Below the pieces are notes generated by a model that saw only the letters and a list, made by a program, of their open reading frames with translations, was not told the origin of the DNA and made no database searches. A DNA stretch of 64,000 nucleotides from Isurus oxyrinchus (lineage: Eukaryota), in assembly GCA_026770705.1 (NCBI GenBank), contig JANJGN010000010.1, positions 67,208,001 through 67,272,000 of the forward strand, read 5' to 3'. The position numbers and the translations under genes are program-made. Positions within the stretch are counted from its first letter, which is position 1. Every line of letters starts with the position of its first letter. Below are positions 4,340-64,000 of this stretch, in pieces.

Positions 4340-7300
4340 TATAATCTGTGTTGTGGACTGTACACAACCCTTTTAGCCTACTAACAACTTTCCTTTCCCA
4401 GAAGCTCAAGACAATCATTCTTTGCACAATATTTAAATGTCTCCACCTTTATTCCAAAACGTCGAGCTCTTTTTCAAAAATTATTTTTCCTTTTGCTAAA
4501 TACAGTTCTACAAGAGAATGGTATGCTGTTGAACCCACATATCCCTAAAAATCTCATGATTACTGGTTTTGTTATGGGAATGGGAAACTGTACAACTGAA
4601 TGTACCTTTGCTGCTCTAGGCAATACTTGTTCCTGACCCGCCACGTGGTAGGTCACCTGATCCTTAGCGAACTTGCTCTTTGCGAGATTGATCACTAGGT
4701 AAGCTGACTGTAATTTCTTGAAGAGGGCTTCCAGCTGCTTTCTGTGAGTTTTCCAGGTGTCACTGTACACTAGGAAGATGTGTAGGTACATTATACAGTT
4801 GGATAAGCCTGCCACTACCTGGTTCATAAGCCTTTGAAAGGTGGTTGAGGCATTCCCGAGTCCAAATGGCATGACTCGACACTGGTATAACCCATCCGGA
4901 ATCACAAAAGTGGAGATTTCCTTCGTGCGGGCAGTCAAGGGAACCTGTCCATATCCCTTGAGTAAACCTACCTCTGTAATGTAGGCTGCATTATCTACCT
5001 GACCTATGCAGTCTTCCAGGCGGGGAGTTGGCTCTGGTCACTATTAACCTTGCGGTAGTCAATGCAGAGGCTTGGGCACAAGCAAAATGGGGGACCTCCA
5101 TCTACTGCTGCTGGGCTCTGTTAGTTGGTGCTATAGCATGCAGTTAATCTCCTCCAGAACCCAGGCCAGCTTTTCTGGACCTAGACAGTAGGGATGTTGC
5201 CTTATGGGAGGGACCTCTCCCACATCCATATCATGTACAGCCGAAGTGGTTCAGCGTGGCTCACCTCTGCAGATGTTTTTAAATGCAGTGAGCAGCCTTG
5301 TCTGATGATCTCACTTTTCTGCACTTAGATGGGTGAATATGGTGTCCAGCTTCACTAAAATTTCTGTGTTTGCTAGCTGGATAGTAAGAGGTTCAGTGTG
5401 GGCCTCACCCATGTCTCCCTCCAATTCACCCTCTTTGTTCCTCTCGTCCTCCAGGTCTGTTGTTATTGGACAGACCGTATACCCGCTTCTCCCATTCTCG
5501 CTGTTGCTGACATGACACAAGCCTTTGCGTTTTCCTGTGGTCTGGTGTGTCAATTAGATAGTTAACCTTCCATAGCTTCTTTGCTATTCTGCATGGGCCA
5601 CTGAAACAGGCTTTTAGGGGTTCACCCAGTATTGGTAGGAGCACTAGTATGTTGTCTCCTGGCTGCAAGGTTTGTTTATCTGCCTGTATTTTCATAGCTG
5701 TTAGGGAGATTTTTCAGTGTTGTTGAACCATATCACAGGCTCTCGTGAGTCACTCATGGAACACAGGTACGTAGTTTAAAATGGATATTTCCAACTTCTG
5801 TTCTAAAAATCTCTCCTTGATTAGTTTCCAAAGATCTATCACTTGGTGTCCGTAAACCAATTCAAGTGGAGTAAAACAGGTGAACTCATTGGGTCAGTCT
5901 CTGTACCAAACAGAAGAAAACCTAGTCTTTTATCGTAGTCAAGTCATGAGGGTACTCATGGCAGTATGCCCTGATCATTGTTTTTAGGATCTGGTGGTAC
6001 CGTTCTAGTGCCCCCTGCGGCTGCACGTGATTTGCCTAAGCCTTCAGCTGGGTCACACCCAGGTTACCCATGACTTCCTGGAATATTTGGGACATGAAAT
6101 TTGAGCCCTGATCCAACTGGATCTCGGTGGACAGTCCGTACCGGGTAGAGGAATGTGTTAAGTCCCCCACTACTGTTTTAGCAGATAGGGTTCTCAGGGG
6201 AATGGCCTCTGGAAGTGGGTCGCCACATCCATGATGGTAAGGAAATACTGGTTTTGTTTTGCGCAGGGGTCCCAACCACACCTTACTGAATGCTTCCCCA
6301 AAAGCCAGCATGGGAATCATAGGTGCAGGTTTTTTGCAGCCTGGGGTTTTCCCACAGCCTGACAGGTGTGGCAGGATCTGAAAAACCTTACTACATCCTC
6401 GTGGAGGTGTGGCCAGTGAAAATGCTGGCTAATGTGAGATTGAGTTTTCCTTATACCAACATGCCCAGTCATTGGGATTTCAATTGCTAGTCTTATTATT
6501 TTCCCACGGTGCCTCAGTGGCACCACTACCTGATGGATCACTTTCCACTCCTCGTTTGTAGGTCTGTGAGGGGGCCCCCACTTCCTCATCAGCACATAAC
6601 TTTTACTGTATTAACATTCAGGGATTGCCTGTGTCTCCACTTCAGTTTGGGCAATCTGAGCTAAACTACAACCAAGGAAGACCCATTTTTAACCTCCTTA
6701 GGGTCCTCTAGGCTACCCAAAAAAGACCTCAGATAACCTGACAGGGTCATCTGTCTACAAGTGCCAATTCAGCTGCAAGTGATGGAGTTTGTCTGACCAT
6801 AGACCAGGTTACCACACAGTTAAGGAAAATGCCAAGCACTTTCTCCTGCAGCAGTTCTGTCTCCCTGACCTCAGTCAGCTTCTCTGAGACTACTGGGGAT
6901 GCTATCACTTTTGATCCTGCCAGGTCATTGCTGAGGAGCAGGTTGACCCCATCCACGGGCAAACTGGGGACGACTCCCATGGTTATAGGCCCTGACAAAA
7001 GGTTGCACTTCAGGTGCACTCAGTATAAGGGGATGGGTATGTACCTGCCTTCAACATCCTTTAACAGCACCTTGCCACTTATTCCACTATCTAGTGGAAA
7101 GGTCATGCCTTTTCCCAACAGTAGATTTCGGTTGGCACCTGTATCCCTCAGTATCACTGTAAGATTACCTACCTGGGAAAATGTAGCCACTCTTCTGTCT
7201 CATACAAAATCCTGTAACCCTCAGGGATTTTTAAAAATCTGCACTCACAGAGGTGTGCCTACAGGGATTCGCTGCCACTGTCAGAGCCATAGCCTGGTCT

Positions 7301-8893
7301 GCTATGCTCTCTGTCTGACTTCCATTTTCTGTGCAAAGTTTGTGTGCCCCAACAAATCCCAAGGGTTATTCCTGTAACTTTAGCTGTCAGCACGGAGGTA
7401 TCCTGCTTTGTGGCAGTTTAGACACACAGACTTCTTGGCCTCACTCCTCTTCTCAGCACAATCCCTCCTGGCTTGAGGAGGGCCCTCTTTGTTTTCAGGT
7501 GTCCCTTCTCTCCCATGGGTGCTCAGTTTCCTATCACTCTCCCACCTTCTATCCTTCTCAGTGGTTGGGGTGGCTAGGGAAAAGTTGCCTTTGGGATGAG
7601 TTTTTGTGAACCAGCTCTTAATCATCAGCCAGTTTTGCTGCCTGTCTGGCCCCTGTTACTCTCTGTTTCTCAATGTGAATTCTTTTCTCTATGTGAATTC
7701 TTATTGGGAGTTGTATGGCGGTTTTGAACTCCTCAAGGAGAATTATTTCACAAAGGTGTTTGGCAGTGGCCTCAATTTTATACGTCTGTATGCATGGTTC
7801 AAAAGTGAGCTGTTTAAACTGTTCAAATTTCAGGTATGTCTGGTCAGGCCATTTGCTGAGGTTACAGAATTTTTGATAGTACACCTCTGGCACTAATTGG
7901 TATGCACTTAAAATAGCCCTTTTTGCTTTCTTATAGATTGTTGCACTTTCCTCAGGCAAGAGGGAGTAAATATTGTGAGCTTTTCCTGTCAGCTTACTCT
8001 ATAACAGCAGGGACCAGTGTTGGGCTGGCCACTTTAACTGCTGTGCTAAACCTTCGAAAGAGATAAAGAAGGCATCCACCTTCTTTATTGTGAGCAATGA
8101 GGAGCCAAACAAATCAGGTTTTCTTGAGTTGAAGGAAGAGCAAATTCGTTAACCCCCTAAACCCAAGAAAAATAATAAAAGCACGACGTTTAGCATTCAG
8201 CCACATACAAAAGACACACACCCAAACACACACACACACACACCAGAAATAAGAGTTAGAGTCCGATAAAAAAGGTAAAAGAATATACAGTTAAGGTCCT
8301 ATGATTGTCCTTCAAGCGTAGATTTTAAACCTTGTGGCTGATTTAGGTTAGCTGGTTTCTTGGATGTAGTCAGGTATAGAGGATGTTGCAATTAATACGA
8401 GAACTCGGTTTGCTGGTAGATTTCTGATAGAGCTGGCTTCTCGAACTGGATGGCACACTTGTTCCAAAAGAGAGAGAGGGAAAGAGAGCAGCCGTCAGCT
8501 TGTTTCCTCTGCTGAAGACTTTCTTGACACTGCCTGTGTTACTTGCAGTCTGTCTTTCGTGGCTGGCAGCCTTGCCTTGAAATGCTTCACCCATTGTGTA
8601 TTTCCAAGAGATTTTGGGTGTGCATTTGATCGCCATTGTTTGAATATCCAGTACTTTGCATTTTTAATGTCTCTTCCATAGACAGTTAAGAGTTTTGATG
8701 GGTGTTTAGATTATAGGAAATGTCTCTCTCTTACTCCCCTGAGGGTAATTTGTTGGTTTTTCATGTCCACCTTGGAATGTGACCTTGCATTTTGGAGCCA
8801 TTTTCCCTGAATCATTTCAAATTGCAAAATTTCCAGTCAGTTGAAAGTTGAAAAATCATATTTTCAAAAATGAAGGTGCTTAGCCTTGTAACA
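4340..8893 (-). mobile_element. Decayed Gmr1-like Ty3/Gypsy LTR retrotransposon (gag/SCAN-like, CCHC, protease, integrase, RT) with a probable 5' LTR at ~8089-8893
   Basis: Minus-strand fragments: AILSAYQLVPE...ILLEEFK, CLNCHKAGYLRADS, GHVGIRKT...HFHWP...CHTCQ, IQLDQGSNF, MPFGLGNASTTFQRLM. Many frameshifts. Confidence 0.85.
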
Positions 8894-13790: not shown

Positions 13791-14341
13791 CTCATGAATT
13801 TGTTAGCACAGTTGTTATGTTACTGGACTAGAAATCCAGAAGTCTGGATTAATGATAGGAGGATTGAGTTCAAGTCCCACGATGACAGCTATAGAAATTA
13901 AATTCACAAAAGCTAGTATCAACAAATGTGACATGAAACTACCAGATTGTTGTTAAAACCCCATTCTAATCCTCTGAATCCATCCTGGTTTATATGTAAC
14001 TCCAGATTCAGAGCAATGGCTTTTAACTACCCTTCTGCTCTAGCTAGACATCCAGTTGTATCAAGTAGCTATGATAAAGGGTTTAATAAGAATGAAACTG
14101 GACGGACACACAGCATCACCCTAGACACTGGAAATATCAAGAGGACACCCAGCCCAGTCAACCCTACATTATCCTCTTCACTTATATCTGGAGATTTTTA
14201 CCAAAATCGAAGAGCTGTTCCACAGACTAGTCAACCAACAGCCTGGAAGAAGCACTTATTTATTGCCCATCCCTAATTGCCCTTGAGAATTGAGTGGCTT
14301 GCTGGGCCATCTCAGAGGCCTTTAAGAGTCAATCAACTCAA

Positions 14342-14448
14342 GGACTCGAAGTTCTGTCGAAGGGTCATGAGGACTCGAAACGTCAACTCTTTTCTTCTCC
14401 GCCGATGCTGCCAGACCTGCTGAGTTTTTCCAGGTAATTCTGTTTTTG
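14342..14448 (+). mobile_element. Short PLE 3'-end fragment with hammerhead motif (14350-14388)
   Basis: Essentially identical to 28581-28680 from the hammerhead onward. Confidence 0.9.
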
Positions 14449-14989
14449 ATCTGCTCACCATTGCTCAGTTTGTATTCTGCCAAGATAATCAGCTCCAGAA
14501 ATCATTACAGCCTTGGTCCAAACATGGACATAAGAGCTAAGTTCCACAGGTGAGGTGAGAGTGACTGCCCTTGACATCAAGGCAGAATTTGGCCAAGTGT
14601 GGCATCAAGGGGCCCTTGTAAAATTTGAATCAATCGGAATTCTGAGAAAGCTCTCCACTGTTGGAACCATACCTAGTGGATGAATCCTTTGAAATCAGCA
14701 GGGCTACCTCGGGTTGAACTCTCAAGAGTGGACAAGCGAGCATTTTCTGTAAAATGCATGAAATATAAATGGATAAAACTGCTAACTGAACAATTCTAAT
14801 GGGACAGATTTTGCATTCAATTGAAGAACCAAGTTCAGGAAAAGGTGTTCATGATCAAATTATTCTTAAAATTAGGTGGTGGATATTAAAATTTAAGGAA
14901 TTTCATATTTTTTACTGAATCTGAAAATTAACATGTAATGAGTTGGTATTAAGTCACAAATGACATCCCATGTGACTGTGACAAAGGTA

Positions 14990-18829: not shown

Positions 18830-19200
18830 GTGTGCTTAGCGTCTTTTTACTCCTTGGCGGGCATGCTCGGCAGGGATGGTCGGGAAGCTGACCACCACCC
18901 GTGATCGGCTCCTCATCGCGTGGATTGCGAGCGGTAGTGCTGAGCGCTGCCTGTGCAAAGGGGAGGAGGATGGAGAGCCAGGCTTAGCGTGCAATTTGCA
19001 TATGTGTGAGAAAGAGCGCTTCAATCTCCCTAAGGCATGGAGCTGCCTCAGGGAGATTGAAGCGCTGTGTATAAATAGAATGAAGAGAATAAAAATTTAA
19101 TAAAATATGTCCTCTAATGTGACTCTGTCACATGAGCTGGGATATATTTTTAATTCAAAAAAAAGTTTTTATTTAACGTTTATTTGCTTTAGGAAACCTC
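18830..19200. mobile_element. Harbinger MITE left part
   Basis: Homologous to 30-420 and 47334-47740. Confidence 0.65.
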
Positions 19201-23507: not shown

Positions 23508-24165
23508 GGCACACGCTAGTGATGTTATGCTCTTAAATGAAAACATCTCCTTTAAATGTGATTGAGATCCAAATTGTAGAGAGCAGTTGCTTCTGGGCTT
23601 CAGGATTGGTTTTCTTTAATGTTTATTTTTCTGGACATATCTCCATGGATGAGGTAGGCTGCATACTAACTTAAAACAAAAACAGAATTACCTGGAAAAA
23701 CTCAGCAGGTCTGGCAGCATCGGCGGAGAAGAAAAGAGTTGACGTTTCGAGTCCTCATGACCCTTCGACAGAACTTGAGTTTGAGTCCAAGAAAAAGTTG
23801 AAATATAAGCTGGTTTAAGGTGTGTGTGTGGTGGGCGGAGAGATAGAGAGAGAGAGAGGTTGGCGGGGGGGTTGGGGGGTGGGGGGTTGGGGGTATGGTT
23901 GTATGGATAAACAAGCAGTGATAGAAGCAGATCATCAAAAGATGTCAACGACAATGGTACAATAGAACACATAGGTGTTAAAGTTAAAGTTGGTGATATT
24001 ATCTAAACGAATGTGCTAATTAAGAATGGATGGTAGGGCACGCAAGGTATAGCTCTAGTGGGGGTGTTTTTTTTTTAGAATGGAAATAGATGGGAAAAGG
24101 AAAATCTTTATAATTTATTGGAAAAAAAAGGAAGGGGGAAACAGAAAGGGGATGGGGGAGGGAGC

Positions 24166-25392
24166 TCACGACCTAAAGTTGTTGAATTCAATATTCAGTC
24201 CGGAAGGCTGTAAGGTGCCTAGTCGGAAGATGAGGTGTTGTTCCTCCAGTTTGCATTGGGCTTCACTGGAACAATGCAGCAAGCCAAGGACAGACATGTG
24301 GGCAAGAGAGCAGGGTGGAGTGTTAAAATGGCAAGCGACAGGGAGGTTTGGGTCATTCTTGCGGACAGACCGCAGGTGTTCTGCAAAGCGGTCGCCCAGT
24401 TTACGTTTGGTCTGTCCAATGTAGAGGAGACCACATTGGGAGCAACGAATGCAGTAGACTAAGTTGGGGGAAATGCAAGTGAAATGCTGCTTCACTTGAA
24501 AGGAGTGTTTGGGCCCTTGGACGGTGAGGAGAGAGGAAGTGAAGGGGCAGGTGTTACATCTTTTGCGTGGGCATGGGGTGGTGCCATAGGAGGGGGTTGA
24601 GGAGTAGGGGGTGATGGAGGAGTGGACCAGGGTGTCCCGGAGGGAGCGATCCCTACTGAATGCCGATAAGGGGGGTGAAGGGAAGATGTGTTTGGTGGTG
24701 GCATCATGCTGGAGTTGGCGGAAATGGCGGAGGATGATCCTTTGAATGCGGAGGCTGGTGGGGTGATAAGTGAGGACAAGGGGGACCCTATCATGTTTCT
24801 GGGAGGGAGGAGAAGGCGTGAGGGCGGATGCGCGGGAGATGGGCCGGACACGGTTGAGTGCCCTGTCAACGACCGTGGGTGGAAAACCTCGGTTAAGGAA
24901 GAAGGAGGACATGTCAGAGGAACCGTTTTTGAAGGTAGCATCATCGGAACAGATGCGACGAAGGCAAAGGAACTGGGAGAATGGGATGGAGTCCTTACAG
25001 GAAGCGGGGTGTGAGGAGCTGTAGTCGAGGTAGCTGTGGGAATCGGTGGGTTTGTAATGGATATTGGTGGACAGTCTATCACCAGAGATTGAGACAGAGA
25101 GGTCAAGGAAGGGAAGGGAAGTGTCAGAGATGGACCACGTGAAAATGATGGAGGGGTGGAGATTGGAAGCAAAATTAATAAATTTTTCCAAGTCCCGACG
25201 AGAGCATGAAGCGGCACCGAAGTAATCATCGATGTACCGGAGAAAAAGTTGTGGAAGGGGGCCGGAGTTGGACTGCAACAAGGAATGTTCCACATACCCC
25301 ATAAAGAGACAGGCATAGCTGGGGCCCATGCGGGTACCCATAGCCACACCTTGTATTTGGAGGAAGTGAGAGGGGTTGAAGGAGAAATTGTT
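24166..25392 (-). pseudogene. 5'-truncated inverted copy of the PLE ORF (RT C-terminal half plus GIY-YIG)
   Basis: The 393-aa ORF is nearly identical to the C-terminus of ORF 26258-28192. Confidence 0.92.
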
Positions 25393-25442
25393 TTTTTTGT
25401 TTTTATCTCTGTGTTTAATTGACTGCCACTGCTCTTCAAGAA

Positions 25443-28192
25443 ATGCCTACCTCCTTGAAGAAGTTCTGTTCCTCTCTGCGACAAGATTTCCGTATCTCTC
25501 TATTGCCTAATTCACCTTTGCTTTCCATTTCCCTCCTGGTGTTTGATAAGGTGTTTACTAAAACCCGCTTTCACAGCCATATCTCCTTTCTCAGTGACTG
25601 TCTCCGTCTCCGACTTACCCCACGTGGATTTCAACTGAAATTCCACCCCTCATGTTTCGAACCCACCCAGGATTACCGGTATCTCCGGGACATAAAACGT
25701 TTCTCGGACTGCTGTTCCCGTCACATTCTGAAATCCACACTCAGTGCCATGCGCCGCCATATGAACACACTCGACCTCTCCCTCCAGCAGCACCGCCGTA
25801 CCCTTTTTCAAAGCTGCGCGTGCCCCCAGTTTCATTTTATCCTTCGGCTCATCCGACGCCTCAACAAGAAACTTTTTCTCTTTCTTTCAAGTGCTAAGGA
25901 ACACAAGCTCCAACAACTCATCGACACCATCACCCATCTAGGACCCTCCACCCCTGCCTGTCCCTCCGTCCCCACCCTTTCTTCCAATCCCAACCCCAGC
26001 CGTGTATTCACTATACCCCCTGACCTTCCCCTCTCCGATGCTGAACGTTCAGTGCTCAGCAAAGGACTTAGTTTCATACCCTTACGCCCTCACCTCAATG
26101 AATCTCGGGCTCTGCATGATACTGAACTCTTCTTCCACCGTCTTCGTCTCCGGGCTCACTTCTTTGGGCAGGAGTCCTCCCAGTTCAACGGATCCTTTTA
26201 CCCATCTCCAATATTCTCCCTCCACCTGGACCCCTCCCTCTGGATTCTTACCTTCTCTTGATCTTTTCATTGAGAACTGTCGACGCGACATTAGTCGTCT
26301 CAATTTCTCTGCTCCTCTCACCCATTCTAACCTGTCTCTCTGAACTTACTGCACTCCATTCTCTCAGGTCCAACCCTGACATTGTCATCAAACCCGCTGA
26401 CAAGGGTGGTGCTGTTGTTGTCTGGCGCACTGACCTCTACCTCGCGGAGGCTGAGCGTCAACTCGCAGACACTTCCTCCTACCTCTCCCTGGACCATGAC
26501 CCCACCACTGAACATCAAGCCATTGTTTCCAGGACTGTCACTGACCTCATCTCCTCTGGGGATCTCCCTCCCACAGCTTCCAACCTGATAGTCGCCCAAC
26601 CTCGGACGGCCCGCTTCTATCTCCTACCCAAAATCCACAAACAGAACTGCCCCGGTAGACCGATCGTCTCAGCTTGCTCCTGCCCCACAGAACTCATTTC
26701 TCGTTATCTTGACTCCCTTCTCTCTCCCCTTGTCCAGTCCCTTCCCACTTACATCCGTGATTCCTCTGACACCTTACGTCACATCAACAATTTCCAGTTC
26801 CCTGGCCCCAACCGCTTCGTCTTCACCATGGACGTCCAATCTCTCTACACCTCCATCCACCACCAGGTTGGTCTGAGGGCCCTTAGCTTCTTCCTCGAAC
26901 AGAGGCCCGAAAAATCCCCATCCACTACTACTCTCCTCCGTCTGGCTGAACTTGTTCTCACGCTGAACAATTTCTCCTTCAACTCCTCTCACTTCCTCCA
27001 AATAAAAGGTGTGGCTATGGGTACCCGCATGGGCCCCAGCTATGCCTGTCTCTTTATGGGGTATGTGGAACATTCCTTGTTGCAGTCCTACTCCGGCCCC
27101 CTTCCACAACTTTTTCTCCGGTACATCGATGATTACTTCGGTGCCGCTTCATGCTCTCGTCGGAACCTGGAAAAATGTATTAATTTTGCTTCCAATCTCC
27201 ACCCCTCCATCATTTTCACGTGGTCCATCTCTGACACTTCCCTTCCCTTCCTTGACCTCTCTGTCTCAATCTCTGGTGATAGACTGTCCACCAATATTCA
27301 TTACAAACCCACCGACTCCCACAGCTACCTCGACTACAGCTCCTCACACCCCGCTTCCTGTAAGGACTCCATCCCATTCTCCCAGTTCCTTCGCCTTTGT
27401 CGCATCTGTTCTGATGATGCTACCTTCAAAAACGGTTCCTCTGACATGTCCTCCTTCTTCCTTAACCGAGGTTTTCCACCCACGGTCGTTGACAGGGCCC
27501 TCAACCTTGTCCGGCCCATCTCCCGCGCATCCGCCCTCACGCCTTCTCCTCCCTCCCAGAAACATGATAGGGTCCCCCTTGTCCTCACTTATCACCCCAC
27601 CAGCCTCCGCATTCAAAGGATCATCCTCCGCCATTTCCGCCAACTCCAGCATGATGCCACCACCAAACACATCTTCCCTTCACCCCCCTTATCGGCATTC
27701 CGTAGGGATCGCTCCCTCCGGGACACCCTGGTCCACTCCTCCATCACCCCCTACTCCTCAACCCCCTCCTATGGCACCACCCCATGCCCACGCAAAAGAT
27801 GTAACACCTGCCCCTTCACTTCCTCTCTCCTCACCGTCCAAGGGCCCAAACACTCCTTTCAAGTGAAGCAGCATTTCACTTGCATTTCCCCCAACTTAGT
27901 CTACTGCATTCGTTGCTCCCAATGTGGTCTCCTCTACATTGGACAGACCAAACGTAAACTGGGCGACCGCTTTGCAGAACACCTGCGGTCTGTCCGCAAG
28001 AATGACCCAAACCTCCCTGTCGCTTGCCATTTTAACACTCCACCCTGCTCTCTTGCCCACATGTCTGTCCTTGGCTTGCTGCATTGTTCCAGTGAAGCCC
28101 AATGCAAACTGGAGGAACAACACCTCATCTTCCAACTAGGCACCTTACAGCCTTCCGGACTGAATATTGAATTCAACAACTTTAGGTCGTGA
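25443..28192 (+). pseudogene. PLE RT plus GIY-YIG endonuclease ORF, probably Neptune clade, with two frameshifts (~26180 and ~26340)
   Basis: LSKGLSFIP, KPADKGGAVVV, FYLLPKIHK, GRPIVS, MDVQSLYT, GVAMGTRMGPSYA, RYIDD, CPRKRCNTC linker, LVYCIRCSQCGLLYIGQT...RFAEH. Spread over ORFs 25419, 26002 and 26258. Confidence 0.92.
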
Positions 28193-28581
28193 GCTCCCTC
28201 CCCCATCCCCACCCCCTTTCTGTTTCCCCCTTCCTTTTTTTTCCAATAAATTATAAAGATTTTCCTTTTCCCATCTATTTCCATTCTAAAAAAAAACACC
28301 CCCACTAGAGCTATTCCTTGAGTGCCCTACCATCCATTCTTAATTAGCACATTCGTTTAGATAATATCACCAACTTTAACTTTAACACCTATGTGTTCTA
28401 TTGTACCATTGTCGTTGACATCTTTTGATGATTGCTTCTATGACTGCTTGTTTGTCCATACAACCACACCCCCAACCCCCCAACCCCCCCACAACCTCTC
28501 TCTCTCTTCTCTATCTCTCCGCCCACCACACACACACCTTAAACCAGCTTATATTTCAACTTTTTCTTGGACTCGAACTCA

Positions 28582-28620
28582 AGTTCTGTCGAAGGGTCAT
28601 GAGGACTCGAAACGTCAACT
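28582..28620 (+). ncRNA. Minimal type I hammerhead ribozyme motif in the PLE 3' region (core variant CUGUCGA), predicted cut after GUC at 28616
   Basis: Stem I AGTT/AACT, CTGTCGA, stem II GGGTC/GACTC, GAAA, palindromic ACGT in place of stem III. Copies at 23737-23775(-), 44136-44174(-), 46371-46409, 51822-51860, 58804-58842, 63011-63049(-). Confidence 0.75.
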
Positions 28621-28721
28621 CTTTTCTTCTCCGCCGATGCTGCCAGACCTGCTGAGTTTTTCCAGGTAATTCTGTTTTTGTTTTGGATTTCCAGCATCCG
28701 CAGTTTTTTTGTTTTTATGCA

Positions 28722-28728
28722 TACTAAC
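28722..28728 (+). promoter_or_regulatory. Probable splicing branch point (TACTAAC) for the TKFC exon at 28782
   Basis: Perfect U2 branch consensus. No AG dinucleotide lies between it and the acceptor AG at 28780-28781. Confidence 0.65.
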
Positions 28729-28781
28729 TTAATTGTTTTGCCTGGATCCCAATCTGCACTATGTTATGCCTTTTATCCTAG

Positions 28782-32400: not shown

Positions 32401-32900
32401 AGCAAGTATAATTATTAGAGAGCCATGGGGTATTCATGAGTGCAGGTGCTCTTTGTGATGGAGAGTGTATGTGGTCAGAAGCCCAGGTCAGGATGTCATA
32501 TTACGATTTGCATGTGAATTCCTGGAATATGTCCATATTTGCACGGAGCCACTCAAGCATCTTAGTAGGCCAGATCTTGCTCTGTTACATTGTTACAAGT
32601 CCAAAACAGGGACTTGCCCTTAGCATCCCTGTAATTTTAAAGAACTTGTTGGACTTGCACATTAATGGCCATTAAACTTGTCACGGAAAGTTAGGGATAA
32701 AACTTAATAGCATATTTTTTTAATGGCATCATAATGTTTAATACAATGCCAATCAACCTTTCTAGCTCAGAAGAGGAACAATTTAAATTGTTCAATCTTA
32801 TTCCTACATCTAGTAAATTATTGTTAGAGATTTTAAATTTTTAATTTGACTTTAATTCACCACCCACCCCTCATTGCTCCTCTTTCTTTCTCCATCCTAG

Positions 32901-33990
32901 AACTAAGCCAATTTTGAATCCACCTTATCACGTGGGATACAGGGTAATTTGATAAGGTGGATTCAAAATTGGCTTAGTTGTAAGAGGCAGAGGATGATGA
33001 CAGAAGGATGCTTTAGTGACTGGAAGCCGGTATCCAGTGGCGTACCACTATTATTTGTCATTTACATAAACGACATAGATGACTATGTGGGGGGTAGGAT
33101 TAGTAAGTTTGTGGATGACACAAAGATTGGCCGGGTGGTTAACAGTGAGGTTGAGTGTCTTGGGCTACAGGAAGACATAGATGGTCAAATGGACAGATAA
33201 GTGACAGATGGAATTTAACCCTGAAAAGTGTGAGGTGATACACTTTCGGCATGGCTCTTGAAAGTTCTGAGGAACAAAGGGACCTTGGCAAGTGTGTCCA
33301 TAGATCTCTGAAGGCAGAGGGGCACGTTAGTGGGGTGGTGAAAAGGGCACATGGGACACTTGCCTTTATCAGTCGAGGCATAGATTACCAAAGTAGGGAG
33401 GTCATGTTGGAGTTGTATAGAATCTTGGTGAGGCCACAGCTGGAGTACTGTGTGCAGTTCTGGTCACCACATTATGGGAAGGATGTGATTGCACTGGAGG
33501 GGGTGCAGAGGCGATTCACCAAGATGTTGCCTGGGATGAAACATTTAAATTATGAAGAGAGGTTGGATAGACGAGTTGTTTTCGTTGGAGCAGAGAAGAC
33601 TGAGGGGCGACCTGATCGAGGTGTACAAGATTATGAGGGGCATGGACAGGGTGGATAGGGAGCAGCTGTTCCCCTTAGCTGAAGGGTCAGTCAGGAGGGG
33701 ACATAAGTTCAAGGTGAGGGGCTGGAGATTTAGGGGGGATGTGAGGAAAAACTTTTTTACCCAGAAGGTGGTGACAGTCTGGAATGCACTGCCTGGGAGG
33801 GTGGTGGAGGTGGGTTGCCTCACATCCTTTAAAAAGTACCTGGATGAGCACTTGGCACGGCATAACATTCAAGGCTATAGGCCAAGTGCTGGTAAATGGG
33901 ATCAGGTAGATAGGTAGGTCAGGTGTTTATCACGTGTCGGTGCAGACTCGATGGGTCAAAGAGCCTCTTCTGTACTATGTTTCTGTGATC
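32901..33990 (+). mobile_element. 5'-truncated CR1 LINE with a 30-bp fold-back at its 5' junction, inserted in a probable MITE remnant
   Basis: WIQNWL...LFVIYIND...SKFVDDTK and LVRPQLEYCVQFWSP motifs, plus a CR1 3' UTR. Confidence 0.9.
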
Positions 33991-35980: not shown

Positions 35981-36626
35981 TAGAGCTTCTTGGTGCCACA
36001 CTCAGTCAAATGCTGCCTTGCTGTCAAGGCCAGTCCCTCTCACCTCACCTCTAGAATTCAGCTCCTTTGTCCATGTTTGGATCAAGACTGTAATGAGGTA
36101 TGGAACTGATTATTCCTGGCAGAACTCAAACTGAGCATCAATGAGCAAATTATTGCTATGTAAGTGGTGCTTGATAGCACTATCAACAACACCTTCGATC
36201 ACTTTGCTGTTGAGCGAGAGTAAGCTATCATGGCATTAATTGGCTGGATAGATTTGTTCTGGTTTTTTTGGACAGGATGTAGTTTGGCAATTTTCCACAT
36301 TGGCAGGTAGATGTCGGTGGTGTAACTATACTGGTAAAGCTTGGTTAGGGGTGCAGCCAGCTCTGGGGCACAAGGCTTCATTACCACAGCTGGAATGTTG
36401 CCAGGGTTTTGCTGTATCAAGTGCCTTCAGCCATTTCTTGATGTCATGTACAGTGAATCAAATTGGCTGAAGACTAATGCTAGGGACCTCGCGAGGAGCC
36501 TGAGATGGATCATCCACTGACAATGTTGGCTGAAGATGGTTGCAAATGGTTCAGCCTTGTCTTTTGCACTGATGTGCTGGGCTCCCCTTTCATAGCAGGT
36601 TCACCAGGTTAGTATCCCATTTTTAG

Positions 36627-36856
36627 ATAAAAGCAAAATACTGCGGATGCCGGAAATCTGAAATAAGAACAGAAAATGCTGGAAAAACTCAGCAGATTTG
36701 CCAGCATCTGTGGAGAGAGAAACAGAGTTAACCTTTCAAGTCCGTATGAAATATATGGCTCTAAAGAAGAGCCATACAGACTCAAAACATTAACTCTTGT
36801 TTTCCTCTCCACAAATGCAGTCAGACCTGTTGAGTTTTTCCAGCATTTTCTGTCAT
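36627..36856. mobile_element. Miniature inverted PLE insertion: two 3' ends pointing outward
   Basis: Minus-strand end with tail (36627-36749) plus plus-strand end with a degenerate hammerhead (36757-36853). Degenerate 14-bp TSD tatcccatttttag (36613-36626) / tacctcatttttag (36857-36870). Confidence 0.75.
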
Positions 36857-37417
36857 TACCTCATTTTTAGGTTTGCCTAATGCTACTCCTGGAATGTTCT
36901 CCTGCACTATGCATTGAACCAGGTTTGATCACCTGCCTTGATGGTAATGGCAGAATGTGGGATATGCCAGTCCATGAGGTTACAGATTGTGGTTGCCTTG
37001 CCAATGAGTACATCAATCCATGGAAGCCTAATTTTGAGCTGCCAAGTCCTAATTCATTCCATTTAACACGGTTGTAATGCCACACAACATGATGAACAGT
37101 ATCCTCAGTGTGAAGATGGGACATTTATCTCCACAAGTACTGTGCAGTGGTCACGCCTACCAACACTATCATGGACAGATGCATCTGCGAAAGATAGATT
37201 GGTGAGGGTGAGGTCAAGTAGGTTTTTCCTTCTTATTGGTACCCTCACTGCTTGTTGCAGTGCCAATCTGGCAGATGATGTTCTTCAGGACTCAGCCAAC
37301 TCAGTCAGTAGTGGTGCTTCTGAGCCGCTCTTGGTAATGAGCATTGAAGTCCCCCACCCAGAGTACATTTCTGTGCTCCTGCTACCCTCAGTGCTTTTTC
37401 TCAGTGGTGTTCAACAT

Positions 37418-43088: not shown

Positions 43089-46000
43089 CTAGCTGAAGGT
43101 TCATTGGATTAAAGTGTCCTGGATGTCCCTGCCTCCTTGGTGTAGTAGCGGGTCGGCGTGCTGTCCCTCATCATTGCCCTGTGCTTCCTCATCCTCTGAG
43201 CCACTGCTGGATTCATCATGTGCAGCCTCACCTATTGATTCAAGGCCTTCATCGTCAACTGCGTCCCCCCTTCCCAGCGCAAGATTGTGCAGAGCACAGC
43301 CTGCTACCACTGTCACAGAGACGCGATCTGGGCGCTACTGGAGTGTACCCCCTGAACATTCCAGGCAACGGAAGCGCATCTTGAGAAGACCAATGGTTCT
43401 CTCCACCACAGCCCTTCTGGTGCCATGGCTCCTATTGTAGTGCTCCTCAGCTTCTGTTCTTAGATGGCAGAGAGGCGTCATGAATCATCTTCTGAGGGGA
43501 TAGCCCTTATCACCCACCAGCCAACCATCCAGTCGAGCCGGAGCACTGAAGAGCCCCGGCATCTGGAAGTGTCTGAGGATATAGGCATCGTGGGAGCTGC
43601 CTGGGTACCTTGCACAAACTTGCAGAATCTGCATTCTGTGATCACACACTATCTGCACGTTCATGGAGTGGAATCCCTTCCATTGATGAAGGCACCGGGC
43701 ACACCTGCTGGTGCCTTGATGGCCACATGTGTGCAGTCTATTGCACCCTGGACACGGGGGAAGCCAACAATGGCCAATAAGCCTCTGGTTAGCTATGCCT
43801 GACTTGCCTGGTCACAGCGGAAGTGGATGAAGGTCAATGCACATCTGAACAGAGCGTCTGTAACCTGCTTGACACAAGTGTGGACAGTTGATTGGGAGAC
43901 ACCGCAAAGATCACCCACCGAGCCCTGGAAGGAGCCAGAGGCATAGAAGTGGAAGGCAACTGTGACTTTCAGAGCCACTGGCATGGGGTATCCACCCACA
44001 CAGTTGGGGGATATCTCCCAGCCAATTATCTGACAGATATAAAAGCAAAAAATTGCGGATGCTGGAAATCCAAAACAAAAACAAAAATACCTGGAAAAAC
44101 TCAGCAGGTCTGGCAGCATCTGCGGAGAGGAACACAGTTAACATTTCGAGTCCAAATGACCCTTCAACAGAACTAAGTAAAAATACAAGAGAGGTGAAAT
44201 ATAAGCTGGTTTAAGGTGGGGGGGGACAAGTAGAGCTGGACAGAGGGCCAGTGATAGGTGGAGATAACCAAAAGATGTCATAGACAAAAGGACAAAGAGG
44301 TGTTGAAGGTGGTGATATTATCTAAGGAATGTGCTGATTAAGGGTAGAAAGCAGGACAAGCAAGGTACATATAGCATGGTGGGGGTGGGGTGGGGTGAAG
44401 GAATCAAAAAAGGCTAAAAGATAGAGATAAAACAATGGATGGAAATACATTTAAAATAATGGAAATAGGTGGGAAAAGAAAAATCTTTATAAATTAATGG
44501 AAAAAAGGGGGTATCGGTGTGGGGATGGGGGAGACAGTTTATGATCTAAAATTGTTGAACTCAGTATTAGTGCGGAAGGCTGTAAAGTGACTAGTCGGAA
44601 GATGAGATGCTGTTCCTCCAGTTTGCGTTGAGCTTCACTGGAACAATGTAGCAAGCCAAGGACAGACATGTGGGCATGAGAGCAGGGTGGAGTGTTGAAA
44701 TGGCAAGCGACGGGGAGGTCTGGGTAATGCTTGCGGACAGACCAAAGGTGTTCTGCAAAGTGGTCACCCAGTCTGCATTTGGTCTCTCCAATGTAGAGGA
44801 AACCACATTGGGAGCAACGAATGCAGTAGACTAAATTGAGGGAAGTGCAAGTGAAATGCTGCTTCACTTGAAAGAAGTGTTTGGGCCCTTGGACGGTGAG
44901 GAGAGGGGAAGTAAAGGGGCAGGTGTTGCACCTTCTGCAGTTGCATGGGAAGGTGCTGTTGGAGGGAGTTGCAGTGTCGGGAGTGATGGAGGAGTGGACC
45001 AGGGTGTCCCGGAGGGAACGATCCCTGCAGAATGCCGCCAGGGGGGTGAAGGGAAGATGTGTTTGGTGGTGGCTTCATGCTGGAGTTGGCAGAGCTGGCG
45101 GAGGATGATCCTTTGAATGCAGAGGCTGGTGGGGTGATAAGTGAGGACAAGGGGTCTCTATCGTGTTTCTGGGAGGGAGAGGAAAGTGTGAGGGCGGATG
45201 CGCGGAAGATGGGCCGGACACAGCTGAGGACCCTGTCAACCACCGTGGGTGGAAAACCTCGGTTAAGGAAGAAGGAAGACATGTCAGAGGAACTGTTTTT
45301 GAAAGTGGCATCATCAGAACAGATGCGACGGAGGCGAAGGAACTGAGAGAATGGGATGGAGTCCATACAGGAAGCGGGGTGTGAGGAGCTGTAGTCAAGG
45401 TAGCTGTGGGAGTTGGTAGGCTTGTAATGGATATTGCTGGACACCAGAAATTCAGACAGAGAGGTCAAGGAAGGGAAGGGAAGTGTCAGAGATAGACCCT
45501 GTGAAAATGATGGAGGGGTGGTAATTGGAAGCGAAATTAATAAATTTTCCCAGAGTGTATGAAGCAGCACCGAAGCAATCATCGATGTACCAGAGAAAGA
45601 GTTGTGGGAGGGGGCCAAAGTAGGACTGGAACAAGGAATGTTCCACTTACTCCATAAAGAGATAGGCATGGCTGGGGCCCATGCGGGTACCCATAGCCAC
45701 ATCTTTTATTTGGAGGAAATAAGAGGAGTTTAAGGAGAAATTGTTCAGTGTGAGAACAAGTTCAGCCAGACGGAGGAGAGTAGTGGTGGATGGGAATTGT
45801 TCAGGCCTCTGTTCGAGGAGAAAGTGGAGAGCCCTCAGACCATCCTGGTGGTGGATGGAGGTGTAGAGGGATTGGACGTCCATGGTGAAGAGGAGGCGGT
45901 TGGGGCCAGGGAACTGGAAATTGTTGATATGATGTAGGGTGTCAGAGGAATCACGGATGTAGGTGGGAAGGGACTGGACAAGGGGAGAGGGAATGGAGTC

Positions 46001-46749
46001 AAGATAGCAAGAAATGAGTTCCATGGGGCAGGAACAGGCTGACATGATCGGTCGGTCTGCCGGGACAGTCCTGTTTGTGGATTTTGGGTAGGAGGTAGAA
46101 GCGGGCCATCCGAGATTGGGAGACTATCAGATTGGAAGCTGTGGAAGGAAGATCTCCAGCCCTACTAGGGCTATCTGTACCTTGCTTGTCTTGCTTTCTA
46201 CCCTTAATTAGCACATTCCTTAGATAATATCACCACCTTCAACACCTCTTTGTCTTTTTGTCTGTGACATCTTTTGGTTATCTCCACGTACCACTGGCCC
46301 TCTATCCAGCTCTACTTGTCCCACCCCCCTTAAACAAGCTTATATTTCACCTCTCTTATATTTTTTACTTAGTTCTGTTGAAGGGTCATTTGGACTCGAA
46401 ATGTTAACTGTGTTCCTCTCCGCAGATGCTGCCAGACCTGCTGAGTTTTTCCAGGTATTTTTGTTTTTGATCTGACAGATATAGTTGACTGTCCCCCTTG
46501 ACAGTCAGAACCTCCTTCAGCACTACACCTCAGTCATATTGAGGTAGCTGCTTCGCCACCTGTATACCCTGGCAGCAGGATAGTGGCGTCTTCTTTGACA
46601 ACCTCTTGGCCCTGCACCCCTTGTGCCTGCGCCTGGCCTCCCAAAGGTGTCTCCCCTGGAGGCTGATAGTCCACTCCTGGTGTCCTCCTTATTCTATCCC
46701 TCCCTTCCTGCTCAGAGGAGCTGCCTCCAGTGGAGATGTCAGAACCCAT
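43089..46749 (-). pseudogene. Harbinger (HARBI1-like) DDE transposase split by a PLE insertion
   Basis: LKVTVAFHFYASGSFQ, IDCTHVAI, GFHSMNVQ, YPGSSHDAYIL, LVGDKGYPL, CALHNLAL motifs. The reading continues across the TSD (YICQI). Confidence 0.9.
44042..46469. mobile_element. PLE insertion: 5'-truncated minus-strand copy (44042-~46159) plus inverted 3' arm (~46160-46469), 14-bp TSD
   Basis: TSD atctgacagatata at 44028-44041 and 46470-46483. RT and GIY-YIG remnants in ORFs 44487-46214. Confidence 0.93.
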
Positions 46750-47995: not shown

Positions 47996-48720
47996 ATAGA
48001 GAAGATTGAAATAAGAAAAAATAATTTGGATAGCTCTGAGGAAGAAAGGAATACAGTAGAAAAAGACATTAGAAAACTTGTAGACTGGGCATTTAAATGG
48101 AAAATGAACATTAATATAAATAAGTATGAGGTGGTGCACTTTCTAGGAAAAGCAGAAACTGCACCAATACCTTAGAAAATAAGAAACTGAATGTAGTCAG
48201 AAGGCAAAGGGATCCAGAGTACAGTTGGAAAAAATTAATTAAATCAGTATCACAGGTTAGCAAAATTATTAAAAATGCTAACAAACTACTGGATTTTATT
48301 TCTAAGAATATAGAACCTAAAGGTAGTGGAGCTATGTTAAACTTATATATCTGACCCTCGTCAGGTCATACTAGTGTAGGCTTCTGATCTTCGTACTATA
48401 TAAAGGACATAGATGCACTGGGAAAAATACAAAAAGATTTACAAGGGTGGTACCAGGACTGAGAGAATACAGCTATTAGGAAAAATTGAACAGGTTGGAA
48501 CTTTTGCTTTAGAGTAAAGCAGACTTTGAGGTGACCTGATTGAGATCTTTAAAATTATGAATGGGTTGAACAGGGTAGATTTGGAGAGATATGTGGACAA
48601 TCCCAAATTAGTGGCAATCAACACAAGTTAGTTAATTCCAGAATAAGGAGAAATTTCTTTACTCAGAATGCTTAGAACGTGAGCTCATTACCACAGGAAG
48701 TTTAGTGTTGTAGAAGGATT
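47996..48720 (+). mobile_element. Old CR1 RT fragment
   Basis: LVDWAFKWKMNININKYEVVHF motif. Confidence 0.6.
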
Positions 48721-48769
48721 TGTAAACTAAACAAAGCCTGACAGGGACTGCCACATGAACAATTTTTCT

Positions 48770-49170
48770 GAGCCCCCCCACCCCCATGTCCCCAAGTTAC
48801 ATCAAGAGTGGAATGGACAAAACACATCAATGACCCTCTCTTTCAGAAAGCCATCAACAAAGAAGTTGTAGTTGAGGGGCAGCTTCCTACGCACTGTCCA
48901 GCCCTAGGCTGTAACCCCCACAGCTGTTCCCTTGCTCATTGGTTAACACATCAACAGACAAAGGTTCACGAGTTGTCTAATGACCCAAAGGAATTGCTTC
49001 TGCCAGGACCCAATAAAATATGGCCGACTTGGCTTTGTCTCAATTGCCTCAGGACTGGTGTTGGTTACTGCAAAGCCCTTTCACAGAAGTGTGGATTCAG
49101 CCAAGCATGTTGTTTACTGTGACTGGATAGACATCCCAAACAATGAAAGGTATATAAGAATGCCTTCTGC
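48770..49170 (+). mobile_element. Non-LTR retrotransposon C-terminal fragment (Vingi/ingi-like)
   Basis: WLCLNCLRTGVGYCKA...KCGF resembles the W..LNRLRTG.G.C....KWG C-terminal motif. Confidence 0.4.
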
Positions 49171-51659: not shown

Positions 51660-52130
51660 GATGGGTGAGACACACAGGAAGAATGAATTGATACCTGGGA
51701 ATAAGTTACACAGAGAATAATGAATACCCAAGAGCAATTTACACAGACCATTTGGTCCAGGAAGTGAATTACAGATAGAGAATTGGGTATCTGCAAGTGA
51801 TTTAGATAACCTTGAACTTCAAGTTCTGTCGAAGGGTCATGAGGACTTGAAATGTCAACTCTTTTCTTCTCCGCCGATGCTGCCAGACCTGCTGAGTTTT
51901 TCCAGGTAATTCTGTTTTTGTTATAGAGAATTATGGGTTCCCGGGAGAGAGTTAAACAGTGTGTGATGAATAGCCAGTAAGTGCTGCATACATGGGAGTG
52001 AATTTCACAGAGAATGATCAATGTCCAGGAGTGAGTTACACAGAATGCTAAATACCACAATAGAAATACTGAATGTGACTATCTATGAGCAAGTTACACA
52101 GTGCTGAATATGTAGGAGTGACTCACACAG
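51660..52130. repeat. Degenerate ~33-bp tandem repeat interrupted by a PLE fragment
   Basis: Recurrent gagtgagttacacagagaat...ccca words. Confidence 0.55.
51813..51922 (+). mobile_element. Short PLE 3'-end fragment with hammerhead motif
   Basis: Near-identical to 28580-28682. Confidence 0.9.
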
Positions 52131-53322: not shown

Positions 53323-54242
53323 CTTGGCCAGACCCCCGTGTGGTTGATAAGATTCTGTTAGGGACCAATAACATTTTGTTTAAAGTAGACAAAGTTTGAA
53401 ATCTAAGACACTTGCTCAGTGAATAAAGCAACAAGATTCCACAGGTTTTGAACAAACAAAAATAATAGAAGCTATCTCATTACTATATGGGAAAGTCCTA
53501 TGAATTTATGTGGATTATAGTAAATTATGTGAAGAGGAAAGAAAGAAAACTGGGAATGTATTATAAATTAGACATATGTAACAAAAACAAAACAAAATAC
53601 AAGTTGAAAGAATCAAAGAAAAATAACTTAAAGAGAATGATAGCCACCTTTTAGGCATAACGGTATGTGTCTGAGTCAGTATTCATTGTCATGTGTGAAG
53701 AATGCATTCGTTGGACATTGCGATGCTGAGTGCGTCTGGATATCCAGAAAGAATGATGAGTGTCAAGAGTGGTGCCGTGAATGCCTGGTCTGTGGTGCAT
53801 ACTTGGGCATCAGGCAGTTCCTGATCTGTGCAGCAGCCAGAGTTTTCAAATGAACCTGATGTGTCGCACTCTCTAAAACAGATCAGAAATGTCCGGTCTA
53901 TTGATTGCAGTCAAAGAGTCAGCATAATCTGGTCTGTGGGTTACACGAAGGAGTGTCCAGAACATCTGGAGTATCAATACCTCTAGACTGAGGCACATTG
54001 AGAGGTATCAAGGACAACAGTTTGTAAAGTACATGTGGGATGTCAGATATTTCAGGTCTGTTGAGCATGTCTGATCTGCAGATTGTTATTATCCTTGGCC
54101 AGACCCCCGTGTGGTTGATAAGATTCTGTTAGGGACCAATAACATTTTGTTTAAAGTAGACAAAGTTTGAAATCTAAGACACTTGCTCAGTGAATAAAGC
54201 AACAAGATTCCACAGGTTTTGAACAAACAAAAATAATAGAAG
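53323..54242. repeat. Identical 149-bp direct repeat (53323-53471 and 54094-54242)
   Basis: Base-for-base identity read by eye. Confidence 0.9.
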
Positions 54243-54289
54243 GTATCTGGCGTATATACCAACATTCAAGTTAAGTATGAGGTACTTTT

Positions 54290-58055: not shown

Positions 58056-58697
58056 AAAAAAAAGTGAAGCAGCATTTCACTTGCATTTCCCCCAACTTAG
58101 TCTACTGCATTCGTTGCTCCCAATGTGGTCTCCTCTACATTGGAGAGACCAAACGTAAACTGGGTGACCGCTTTGCAGAACACCTGCGGTCTGTCCACAA
58201 GAATGACCCAAACCTCCCTGTCGCTTGCCATTTTAACACTCCACCCTGCTCTCTTGCCCACATGTCTGTCCTTGGCTTGCTGCATTGTTCCAGTGAAGCC
58301 CAACGCAAACTGGAGGAACAACACCTCATCTTCCGACTAGGCACTTTACAGCCTTCCGGACTGAATATTGAATTCAACAACTTTAGGTCGTGAGCTCCCT
58401 CTCCCATCCCCACCCCCTTTCTGTTTCCCCATTCCTTTTTTTCCCAATAAATTATATAGATTTTTCTTTTCCCACCTATTTCCATTATTTTTAAATATCT
58501 TAAAATCTTTTATGCTCTCCCCGCCCTCACTAGAGCTATACCTTGCGTGCCCTACCATCCATTCTTAATTAGCACATTCGTTTAGATAATATCACCAACT
58601 TTAACACCTATGTGTTCTTTTGTTCTATTGTTGTTGACTTCTTTTGATGATCTGCTTCTATCACTGCTTGTTTGTCCCTACGACCACACCCCCCCCC

Positions 58698-62951: not shown

Positions 62952-64000
62952 AACAATAAAAATACCTGGAAAAACTCAGCAGGTCTGGCAGCATCTACGG
63001 AAAGGAACACAGTTGATGTTTCGAGTCCGTATGACTCTTCAACAGAACTAAGTAAAAACAGAAAAGAGGTGAAATGTAAGCTGGTTTAAGGGGAGTGGGT
63101 GGAGGGGGGTGGTGGTGGGACAGGTAGAGCTGGGTAGAGGGCCAGTGATAGGTGGAGATAGCCAAAAGATGTCATAGACAAAAGGACAAAGAGGTGTTGA
63201 AGGTGGTGATATTATCGAAGGCATGTGCTAATTAAGGGTAGAAAGCAGGGCAAGCAAGGTACAGACAGCCCTACCGGGGGTGGGATGGGGTGAAGGGAAG
63301 GGATCGAAATAGGCTAAAAGGTAGAGATAAAACAATGGATGGAGATACATTTAAAAATAATGGAAATAGGTGGGAACAGAAAAATCTATATAAATTATTG
63401 AAAAGAAGAGGGAGATTGGAAAGGGGGTGGGGATGGAGGAGAGAGTTCATGATCTAAAATTGTTGAACTCAGTATTCAGTCCGGAAGGCTGTAAAGTGCC
63501 TAGTCAAAAGATGAGGTGCTGTTCCTCCAGTTTGCATTGAGCTTCATTGGAACAATGTAGCAGGCCAAGGATGAACATGTGGGCATGAGAGCAAGGTGGA
63601 GTGTTGAAACGGCAAGTGACAGGGAGGTCTGGGTCATGTTTGCGCTCAGACTGAAGGTGTTCTGCAAAGCGGTCACCCAGTCTGCGTTTGGTCTCTCCAA
63701 TGTAGAGGAAATCGCATTGGGAGCAACGAATGCAGTAGACTAAATTGAGGGAAGTGCAAGTAAAATGCTGTAAAAGTTGCTCCAACAACTCATCGACATT
63801 AACACCCATCCAGAACCCTCCACCCCTGCCTGTCCCTCTGTCCCCATCATGTCTTCCAATCCCAGCCCCAGCCATGTATTCACCATACCTCCTGACCTTC
63901 CCCTCTCCGATGCTGAACGTTCAGTGCTCAGCAAAGGACTTAGTTTCATACCTTTGTGCCCTCATCTCAATGAATTTTGGGCTCGACATGATGCTGAGCT
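62952..64000. mobile_element. PLE insertion: inverted 3' arm (62952-63770, minus) joined to a plus-strand copy (from ~63779) that runs out of the window
   Basis: The minus arm has GIY-YIG plus hammerhead. The plus part matches 25907-26130 (...PLSDAERSVLSKGLSF). Confidence 0.9.

Follow-up and report, generated by a model that had tools for sequence, protein, structure and literature searches.

Two-armed, tail-outward insertions of a Penelope-like element in Isurus oxyrinchus and how they may arise

How does a retroelement come to lie in host DNA as a pair of inverted copies, with both of its 3' ends turned outward and a short tail at one end? The question is raised by a 64,000-nt stretch of Isurus oxyrinchus DNA (GCA_026770705.1, contig JANJGN010000010.1, positions 67,208,001 to 67,272,000 of the forward strand; hereafter the window, in whose own coordinates all positions below are given), where copies of a Penelope-like element (PLE) are repeatedly paired with an inverted 3' fragment. 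In the available part of Craig et al. (2021, PMC8557442), a typical PLE insertion carries an inverted 5'-truncated copy, a 30-40-bp tail that is often present at one end only and a short target-site duplication (TSD), and the formation of such inverted tail-out insertions is stated to be unresolved. We find that the insertions in the window are real and are ordinary members of this described kind, representing no new system, and that they are probably best explained by two-ended priming from two fixed internal sites.

Self-comparison and a profile search of the window located 12 PLE 3' ends in total, seven in four two-armed insertions (I1 to I4) and five in plain copies (P11, P14, P51, P58 and P60); the right end of I4 lies beyond the window edge, hence seven ends and not eight. 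An earlier sequence-only reading had paired a PLE copy with an inverted 3' fragment at 23675, 36627, 44042 and 62952, and both searches bore this out. All four arm pairs are oriented tail-out, and the profile search showed that every outer junction of the two-armed units with host DNA is an element 3' end, as had been claimed for the three complete insertions. Specifically, I1 (23675-28717) consists of a tailless, 5'-truncated inverted arm of 1.7 kb (23675-25392, minus strand), whose outer end lies at the position defined below as start site 1, and a forward arm as long as one 3312-nt unit plus about 15 nt. The inverted arm matches 26966-28682 at 97.6% in the self-comparison, and the inner junction (25390-25406, plus strand) shows a 3-nt overlap followed by the final 15 nt of the tail, common with 28704-28718, which open the forward arm. 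I2 (44042-46469) joins a 2.1-kb tailed arm (minus strand) to a 0.3-kb tailless arm (plus strand) inside a HARBI1-like gene, with a palindrome of 7-bp stem at the inner junction (46158-46172). I3 (36627-36856) is an old miniature insertion with a tailed left arm, a central palindrome of 9-bp stem and a degenerate TSD, and I4 (62952-64000) joins a 0.82-kb tailless inverted arm, through about 8 nt of filler, to a forward arm that starts at the equivalent of 25907 and leaves the window. Stems of 7 and 9 bp were reached by 1.2% and 0 of 2000 element-body positions, respectively; by the same comparison, the inner junctions of I1 and I4 showed no palindrome above chance.

There is one target duplication per two-armed unit, and the arms are near-identical. 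TSDs were sought by a blind direct-repeat search at the boundaries, with 2986 random pairs of equally sized regions as the null, none of which scored 12 or more. The two 15-bp TSDs of I1 (23660-23674 and 28718-28732, plus strand) match exactly, and their sequence occurs in the window only at these two edges. Exact 14-bp TSDs flank I2 (44028-44041 and 46470-46483) and P58 (58042-58055 and 58905-58918). For I3 the blind search returned a 9-bp exact core, a level met by 18 of the 2986 random pairs, and comparison by eye of 36613-36626 with 36857-36870 gave 12 of 14 identical bases, a decay that fits arms 15.7% apart. The duplications first proposed (15, 14 and, in degenerate form, 14 bp, with a further 14 bp at 58056) were thus recovered, exactly for I1, I2 and P58 and by eye for I3. 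The proposed length of 14-15 bp holds for I1, I2 and P58, but the range is wider, with a 12-bp TSD in P60, a 10-bp offset match in P51 and none in P14; we give the TSD range of the family here as 12-15 bp.

I2 interrupts a decayed HARBI1-like (Harbinger) transposase gene (43401-44041 and 46470-46660, minus strand). When the two flanks were searched separately, they met without a gap at the same four residues around the duplicated codons in four of six homologues; the right flank was unmatched in two of the six. Because the gene is split with only the duplicated codons repeated, I2 is one insertion event, and, as far as sequence comparison goes, collinearity of the gene can stand in for an empty site. 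The arms within an insertion differ by 1.3% in I1, 3.7% in I2 and 15.7% in I3, and separate copies, at 5.1-13.0%, are further apart than the arms of I1 and I2. Moreover, at 15 of 18 listed positions of the I1 arm overlap the forward-arm letter is the minority letter in public run X1, and the inverted arm carries that minority letter at 8 of these 15. The I1 arms appear to derive from a common source lineage or to have been homogenised later.

The 3' ends fall into two main classes. A 35-nt tail (28683-28717, plus strand), whose 3' end we call start site 2, is present at 4 of the 12 ends. Seven tailless ends are spread over 28679-28682 in I1 coordinates and define start site 1 (28679-28684, plus strand). 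The claim that tailless ends stop at or near one fixed sequence stands for these; it does not for the right arm of I3, whose end lies near 28675, where an older variant of the sequence stands in place of TGTTTTTG. A tail at one end only, likewise claimed before, was seen in all three complete pairs (I1, I2 and I3), and the I4 arm at 62952 is tailless, although this regularity has a P of 0.05-0.125 under independent site choice and is not significant. In both clearly unequal complete pairs (I1 and I2), the tail is on the longer arm.

The two end classes recur in public sequencing runs, which were used as assembled contigs and their best matches, so that the two ends of one insertion are unpaired and the ratio of site 1 to site 2 may be biased. 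In run X1, 382,611 contigs match the element; at least 253 contigs have loose ends behind 28684, and at least 346 and 454 have them behind 28709 and 28718, respectively. Both clusters are also found among the matches listed for run X17. Among the matches listed, run ends at 28718 often go on into the first letters of the 5' leader, and the joint of tail and leader is present in run X15. The element is scarce in the raw-read run X21 (11 reads only). In run X20, a coral metatranscriptome, a fraction of 0.51 of the words sampled from the element is present, most simply through contamination, and this run was not used as evidence. Separately, 3 of the 15 listed joints (of 965 in run X1) exit at 25479-25480, early in the open reading frame (ORF), and re-enter the pseudo-long terminal repeat (pLTR) at 28551, 28570 and 28683, which makes 25479-25480 a possible third end site or self-target site.

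Start site 1 is also the end of four of the five plain copies, none of which has an inverted arm, so this site is used without one. P58 (58056-58904, plus strand) is a 5'-truncated tailless copy with a 14-bp TSD, in which the first 6 bases are the same as the 6 that come next in the element, and P60 (60456-60565, minus strand) is a tailless stump with a 12-bp TSD (60443 and 60552). P14 (14344-14448, plus strand) is a tailless stump with no TSD seen; its surroundings (14258-14609) hold fragments of two different repeats on either side and no duplication, which suggests an insertion accompanied by a deletion. For P51 (51811-51922, plus strand), also a tailless stump, 10 bp of target sequence match between 51775 and 51923 (region 51775-51932), and about 35 nt of filler separate this match from the element. 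P11 (11742-11875, plus strand) is an old tailed stump whose TSD is too decayed to resolve.

Where along the RNA, then, does reverse transcription start? At 25392-25406 the final 15 nt of the tail are found a second time, and there they pass directly into the 5' leader (25407-25442, plus strand, from the tail end to the ATG) of an ORF whose N-terminus aligns with relatives. Because the tail is continuous with the leader, the start sites are internal and near the front of the unit. Site 1 is about 72 nt from the ATG that follows it and about 66 nt from the predicted hammerhead cut that precedes it; for site 2 the distances are about 37 and 101 nt. The proposal that both sites lie near the RNA 3' end is not supported. 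In seven scorable junctions, the first target bases match the next element bases for 12 nt in total, against 2.7-3.5 expected (P 0.0006-0.002), a conservative total, as the left junction of I3 was scored 0 and has 5 by eye. Where the first target bases equal the next element bases, the assignment of some bases to the TSD is uncertain, and a stagger of less than 12-15 bp is possible.

The inner ends are also informative. The I1 forward arm falls about 20 nt short of site 1, the starting point of the inverted arm; by uniform truncation, an arm would end in the tail about 1% of the time. In RNA coordinates, the two I1 arms are adjacent to within about 20 nt, as in twin priming, if the RNA is tandem or circular; those of I2, I3 and I4 are not, which leaves I1 as a single example. 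At the upstream edge of the hammerhead (28572-28597) there is a cluster of 5' ends, those of P11, P14, P51, P60 and both I3 arms, six short arms or copies in all; such a cluster would be expected of run-off from the start sites to an RNA 5' end or to a structural stop.

In the mechanism that we consider probable, the PLE protein would nick both DNA strands about 12-15 bases apart, leaving 3' overhangs, and each freed 3' end would prime reverse transcription at site 1 or site 2, which bound the 35-base tail in the 5' leader. A few bases of primer-template pairing likely fine-tune the start of each end. Both cDNAs would stop early and be joined 3' end to 3' end by a short overlap, snap-back or filler, a mode of joining that would place both element 3' ends outward; in plain copies, only one nick would prime. 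With start sites so near the front of the transcription unit, an arm of more than about 140 nt would call for a template jump or for RNA in tandem or circular form. The core of this scheme, a staggered cut with both 3'-OH ends priming at two fixed sites, was put forward in the sequence-only reading; it fits the geometry of the insertions and the in vitro behaviour of an anole PLE, but it is largely in print. Several points weigh against it. Its intermediates are unobserved, and every step is inferred from end products. In vitro, the start site is alike on both strands, which leaves the one-sided tail unexplained, and it is described as non-homologous to the cut DNA (Frangieh et al. 2024, PMC11167929). 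Additionally, up to 6 TSD bases could be element-derived, judging from the junction letters. Finally, two observations also fit a fold-back, for which a single nick would suffice: the longer arm bears the tail in I1 and I2, and there are palindromes at two of the four inner junctions.

In such a fold-back, cDNA begun at site 2 (the long tailed arm) or an antisense template would self-prime the inverted arm, and resolution at site 1 by the endonuclease would give a second arm without a tail. Both components resemble published suggestions, namely antisense self-priming in the accessible text of Arkhipova et al. (2013, PMC3846280) and endonuclease-mediated resolution in that of Craig et al. (2021, PMC8557442). 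We regard it as possible but unlikely. It predicts that the longer arm bears the tail, as I1 and I2 show, and it agrees with the absence of a tail from the short I4 arm; the 7- and 9-bp palindromes at the I2 and I3 junctions speak for it, whereas at I1 and I4 no palindrome exceeds chance. Arm divergence also fits identity at birth, but four of the five plain copies end at site 1 without an inverted arm, and in vitro reverse transcription starts at both sites with both strands extended (Frangieh et al. 2024, PMC11167929).

That the arms are separate insertions at a favoured site, or products of later recombination, is very unlikely: both arms lie within a single TSD, the two flanks of I2 carry the HARBI1-like gene in collinear order, the arms are each other's closest copies and four of four pairs are tail-out. 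In favour of this reading are the great abundance of the family (the run X1 contigs above) and the self-nicking of which PLEs are capable (Frangieh et al. 2024, PMC11167929). It is still harder to believe that the inverted structures are assembly artefacts. Inverted repeats do trouble assemblies, as stated in the available part of Craig et al. (2021, PMC8557442), and none of the public-run reads was seen to span a whole insertion, but the arm divergence of 1.3-15.7%, the indels between arms, the TSDs and the collinear host gene all speak against an artefact.

A strict form of two-ended priming can be drawn up, a variety of twin priming in which a single protein complex would assign site 1 to one DNA strand and site 2 to the other, with both primed on the same tandem or circular RNA molecule. 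We hold this form to be doubtful. If true, every two-armed insertion would bear a tail on exactly one arm, arms of full length would end shortly before the site at which the partner began (as is seen in I1), and each family would have its own stagger, here 12-15 bp; the rule would then take the place of the antisense self-priming model as the account of the inverted PLE structure.

The comparison with long interspersed element 1 (L1) is instructive. In L1 twin priming, both ends of a staggered cut prime cDNA, which gives an inversion inside one TSD. The contrast with L1 drawn in the sequence-only reading was overstated, since the I1 forward arm stops about 20 nt from the start site of the other arm; I1 shows the adjacency expected of twin priming in tandem-unit coordinates, and I2 to I4 do not. 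In contrast to L1, the PLE here has no poly(A), both primers act at fixed sites and the arms duplicate sequence, so that two units or two RNAs are needed.

Among PLEs, the inverted structure and the two-site, two-strand chemistry are already in print. The typical unit of endonuclease-bearing (EN+) PLEs, as far as the available parts of the sources describe it, has the same inverted 5'-truncated copy at the 5' side, a tail at one end, a short TSD and junction palindromes. For rotifers, the accessible text of Arkhipova et al. (2013, PMC3846280) describes inverted pLTR units whose TSDs measure 8-10 bp, whose junctions hold palindromes and of which one may bear a 31-bp tail; the TSDs here are 12-15 bp, and the tail, which overlaps the ORF start in the rotifer Pen2a, lies wholly before the ATG. 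For the Drosophila virilis group, the part of Schostak et al. (2008, PMC2377424) available to us gives the inverted-terminal form of Penelope as the most frequent in D. virilis and shows the same 34-37-bp repeat at the ORF start and the 3' end. A solo ORF between two such repeats, described there, resembles the I1 forward arm, although that Penelope belongs to a different clade and has a confirmed 5' intron. The closest biochemical parallel is the Anolis Poseidon element PAc, for which both strands are cut and extended in vitro, two internal start sites bound the tail downstream of a hammerhead and a dimer is predicted (Frangieh et al. 2024, PMC11167929). PAc differs in its clade (Poseidon) and in start sites inside the ORF (here before the ATG). 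Neither a bias of one strand towards a given site nor homology to the primer is reported for it, and inverted products are not addressed in the main text; later insertion steps are left unvalidated there (PMC11167929).

In the literature searched, we found no explicit two-ended model for PLEs, no PLE TSDs of 12-15 bp and no paper on PLE insertion ends in sharks, which the older works of Evgen'ev and Arkhipova (2005) and Arkhipova (2006) may cover. The window therefore makes small additions: the 12-15-bp TSDs, the above-chance primer microhomology and the one-unit I1 forward arm that ends about 20 nt from site 1. Three complete insertions are too few to separate two-ended priming from a fold-back, but the great abundance and fairly young age of the family, together with TSDs that are long and readily scored, make it suitable material for doing so.

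The element itself is, judging from its protein sequence, probably a Neptune-type PLE. Its ORF in I1 (25443-28192, plus strand), broken by one or more frameshifts between about 26170 and 26340, encodes an N-terminal domain, a reverse transcriptase (RT; DKG and YIDD), a C-x4-C-x2-C linker and a GIY-YIG endonuclease. The Pfam RVT_1 match (E 5e-7) is above the cutoff, the GIY-YIG match (E 6.5e-4, 20.4 bits) is slightly below the cutoff of 22.6, and 1109 relatives have the same RT and GIY-YIG layout. The translation contains KPADKGG and LVYCIRCSQCGLLYIG, both conserved in the alignment of relatives (A1), and the linker CPRKRCNTC, whose three cysteines are of the invariant class in that alignment. 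The named relatives of highest identity (64-74%) are from cartilaginous fish. The linker finger is assigned to Neptune and Nematis, and not to Penelope/Poseidon, in the available part of Craig et al. (2021, PMC8557442); its presence speaks against the Penelope/Poseidon clade, and the finger itself would fit either Neptune or Nematis. Only Neptune and Poseidon were reported for the vertebrates sampled in a 2026 preprint.

A minimal type I hammerhead motif in the pLTR (28586-28616, plus strand), with a predicted cut after 28616, was found by a pattern made for this analysis. The pattern has nine matches in the window, all in element ends (9 of 12 ends), with cleavage predicted; Rfam models gave no hammerhead match in the window. 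Minimal hammerheads in PLEs, including fish Neptune, are described in the accessible text of Cervera and de la Pena (2014). Folding of the hammerhead-to-tail region was no better than that of shuffles (z 0.84), and no stem-loop was seen at the start sites. A leader intron spanning both start sites is unsupported: no corresponding joint was seen among the 15 of 965 joints listed, and its candidate donor is absent in the older copies I3 and P60. A dimer prediction for residues 1-170, run without an alignment, scored 0.00 and is evidence neither way. Pattern scans of viral, metagenome and GTDB contigs returned no element copy, and a protein scan of metagenomes returned two distant loci.

Several other features share the window. 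An Rfam match to a CPEB3/HDV-like ribozyme (48712-48788, minus strand; 31.3 bits, E 2.2e-4) falls below the gathering score of 35 and could be part of a different retroelement. Palindromes at 32886-32998 (arms of about 40 bp) and 19015-19066 are unrelated to PLE ends. ORF fragments at 4474-7998 (minus strand) resemble gag, RT and integrase of what we take to be a Gypsy-type LTR retrotransposon. Finally, a direct repeat of 155 bp (53323-53477 and 54094-54248) is 99.4% identical between its two copies, which lie 771 bp apart.

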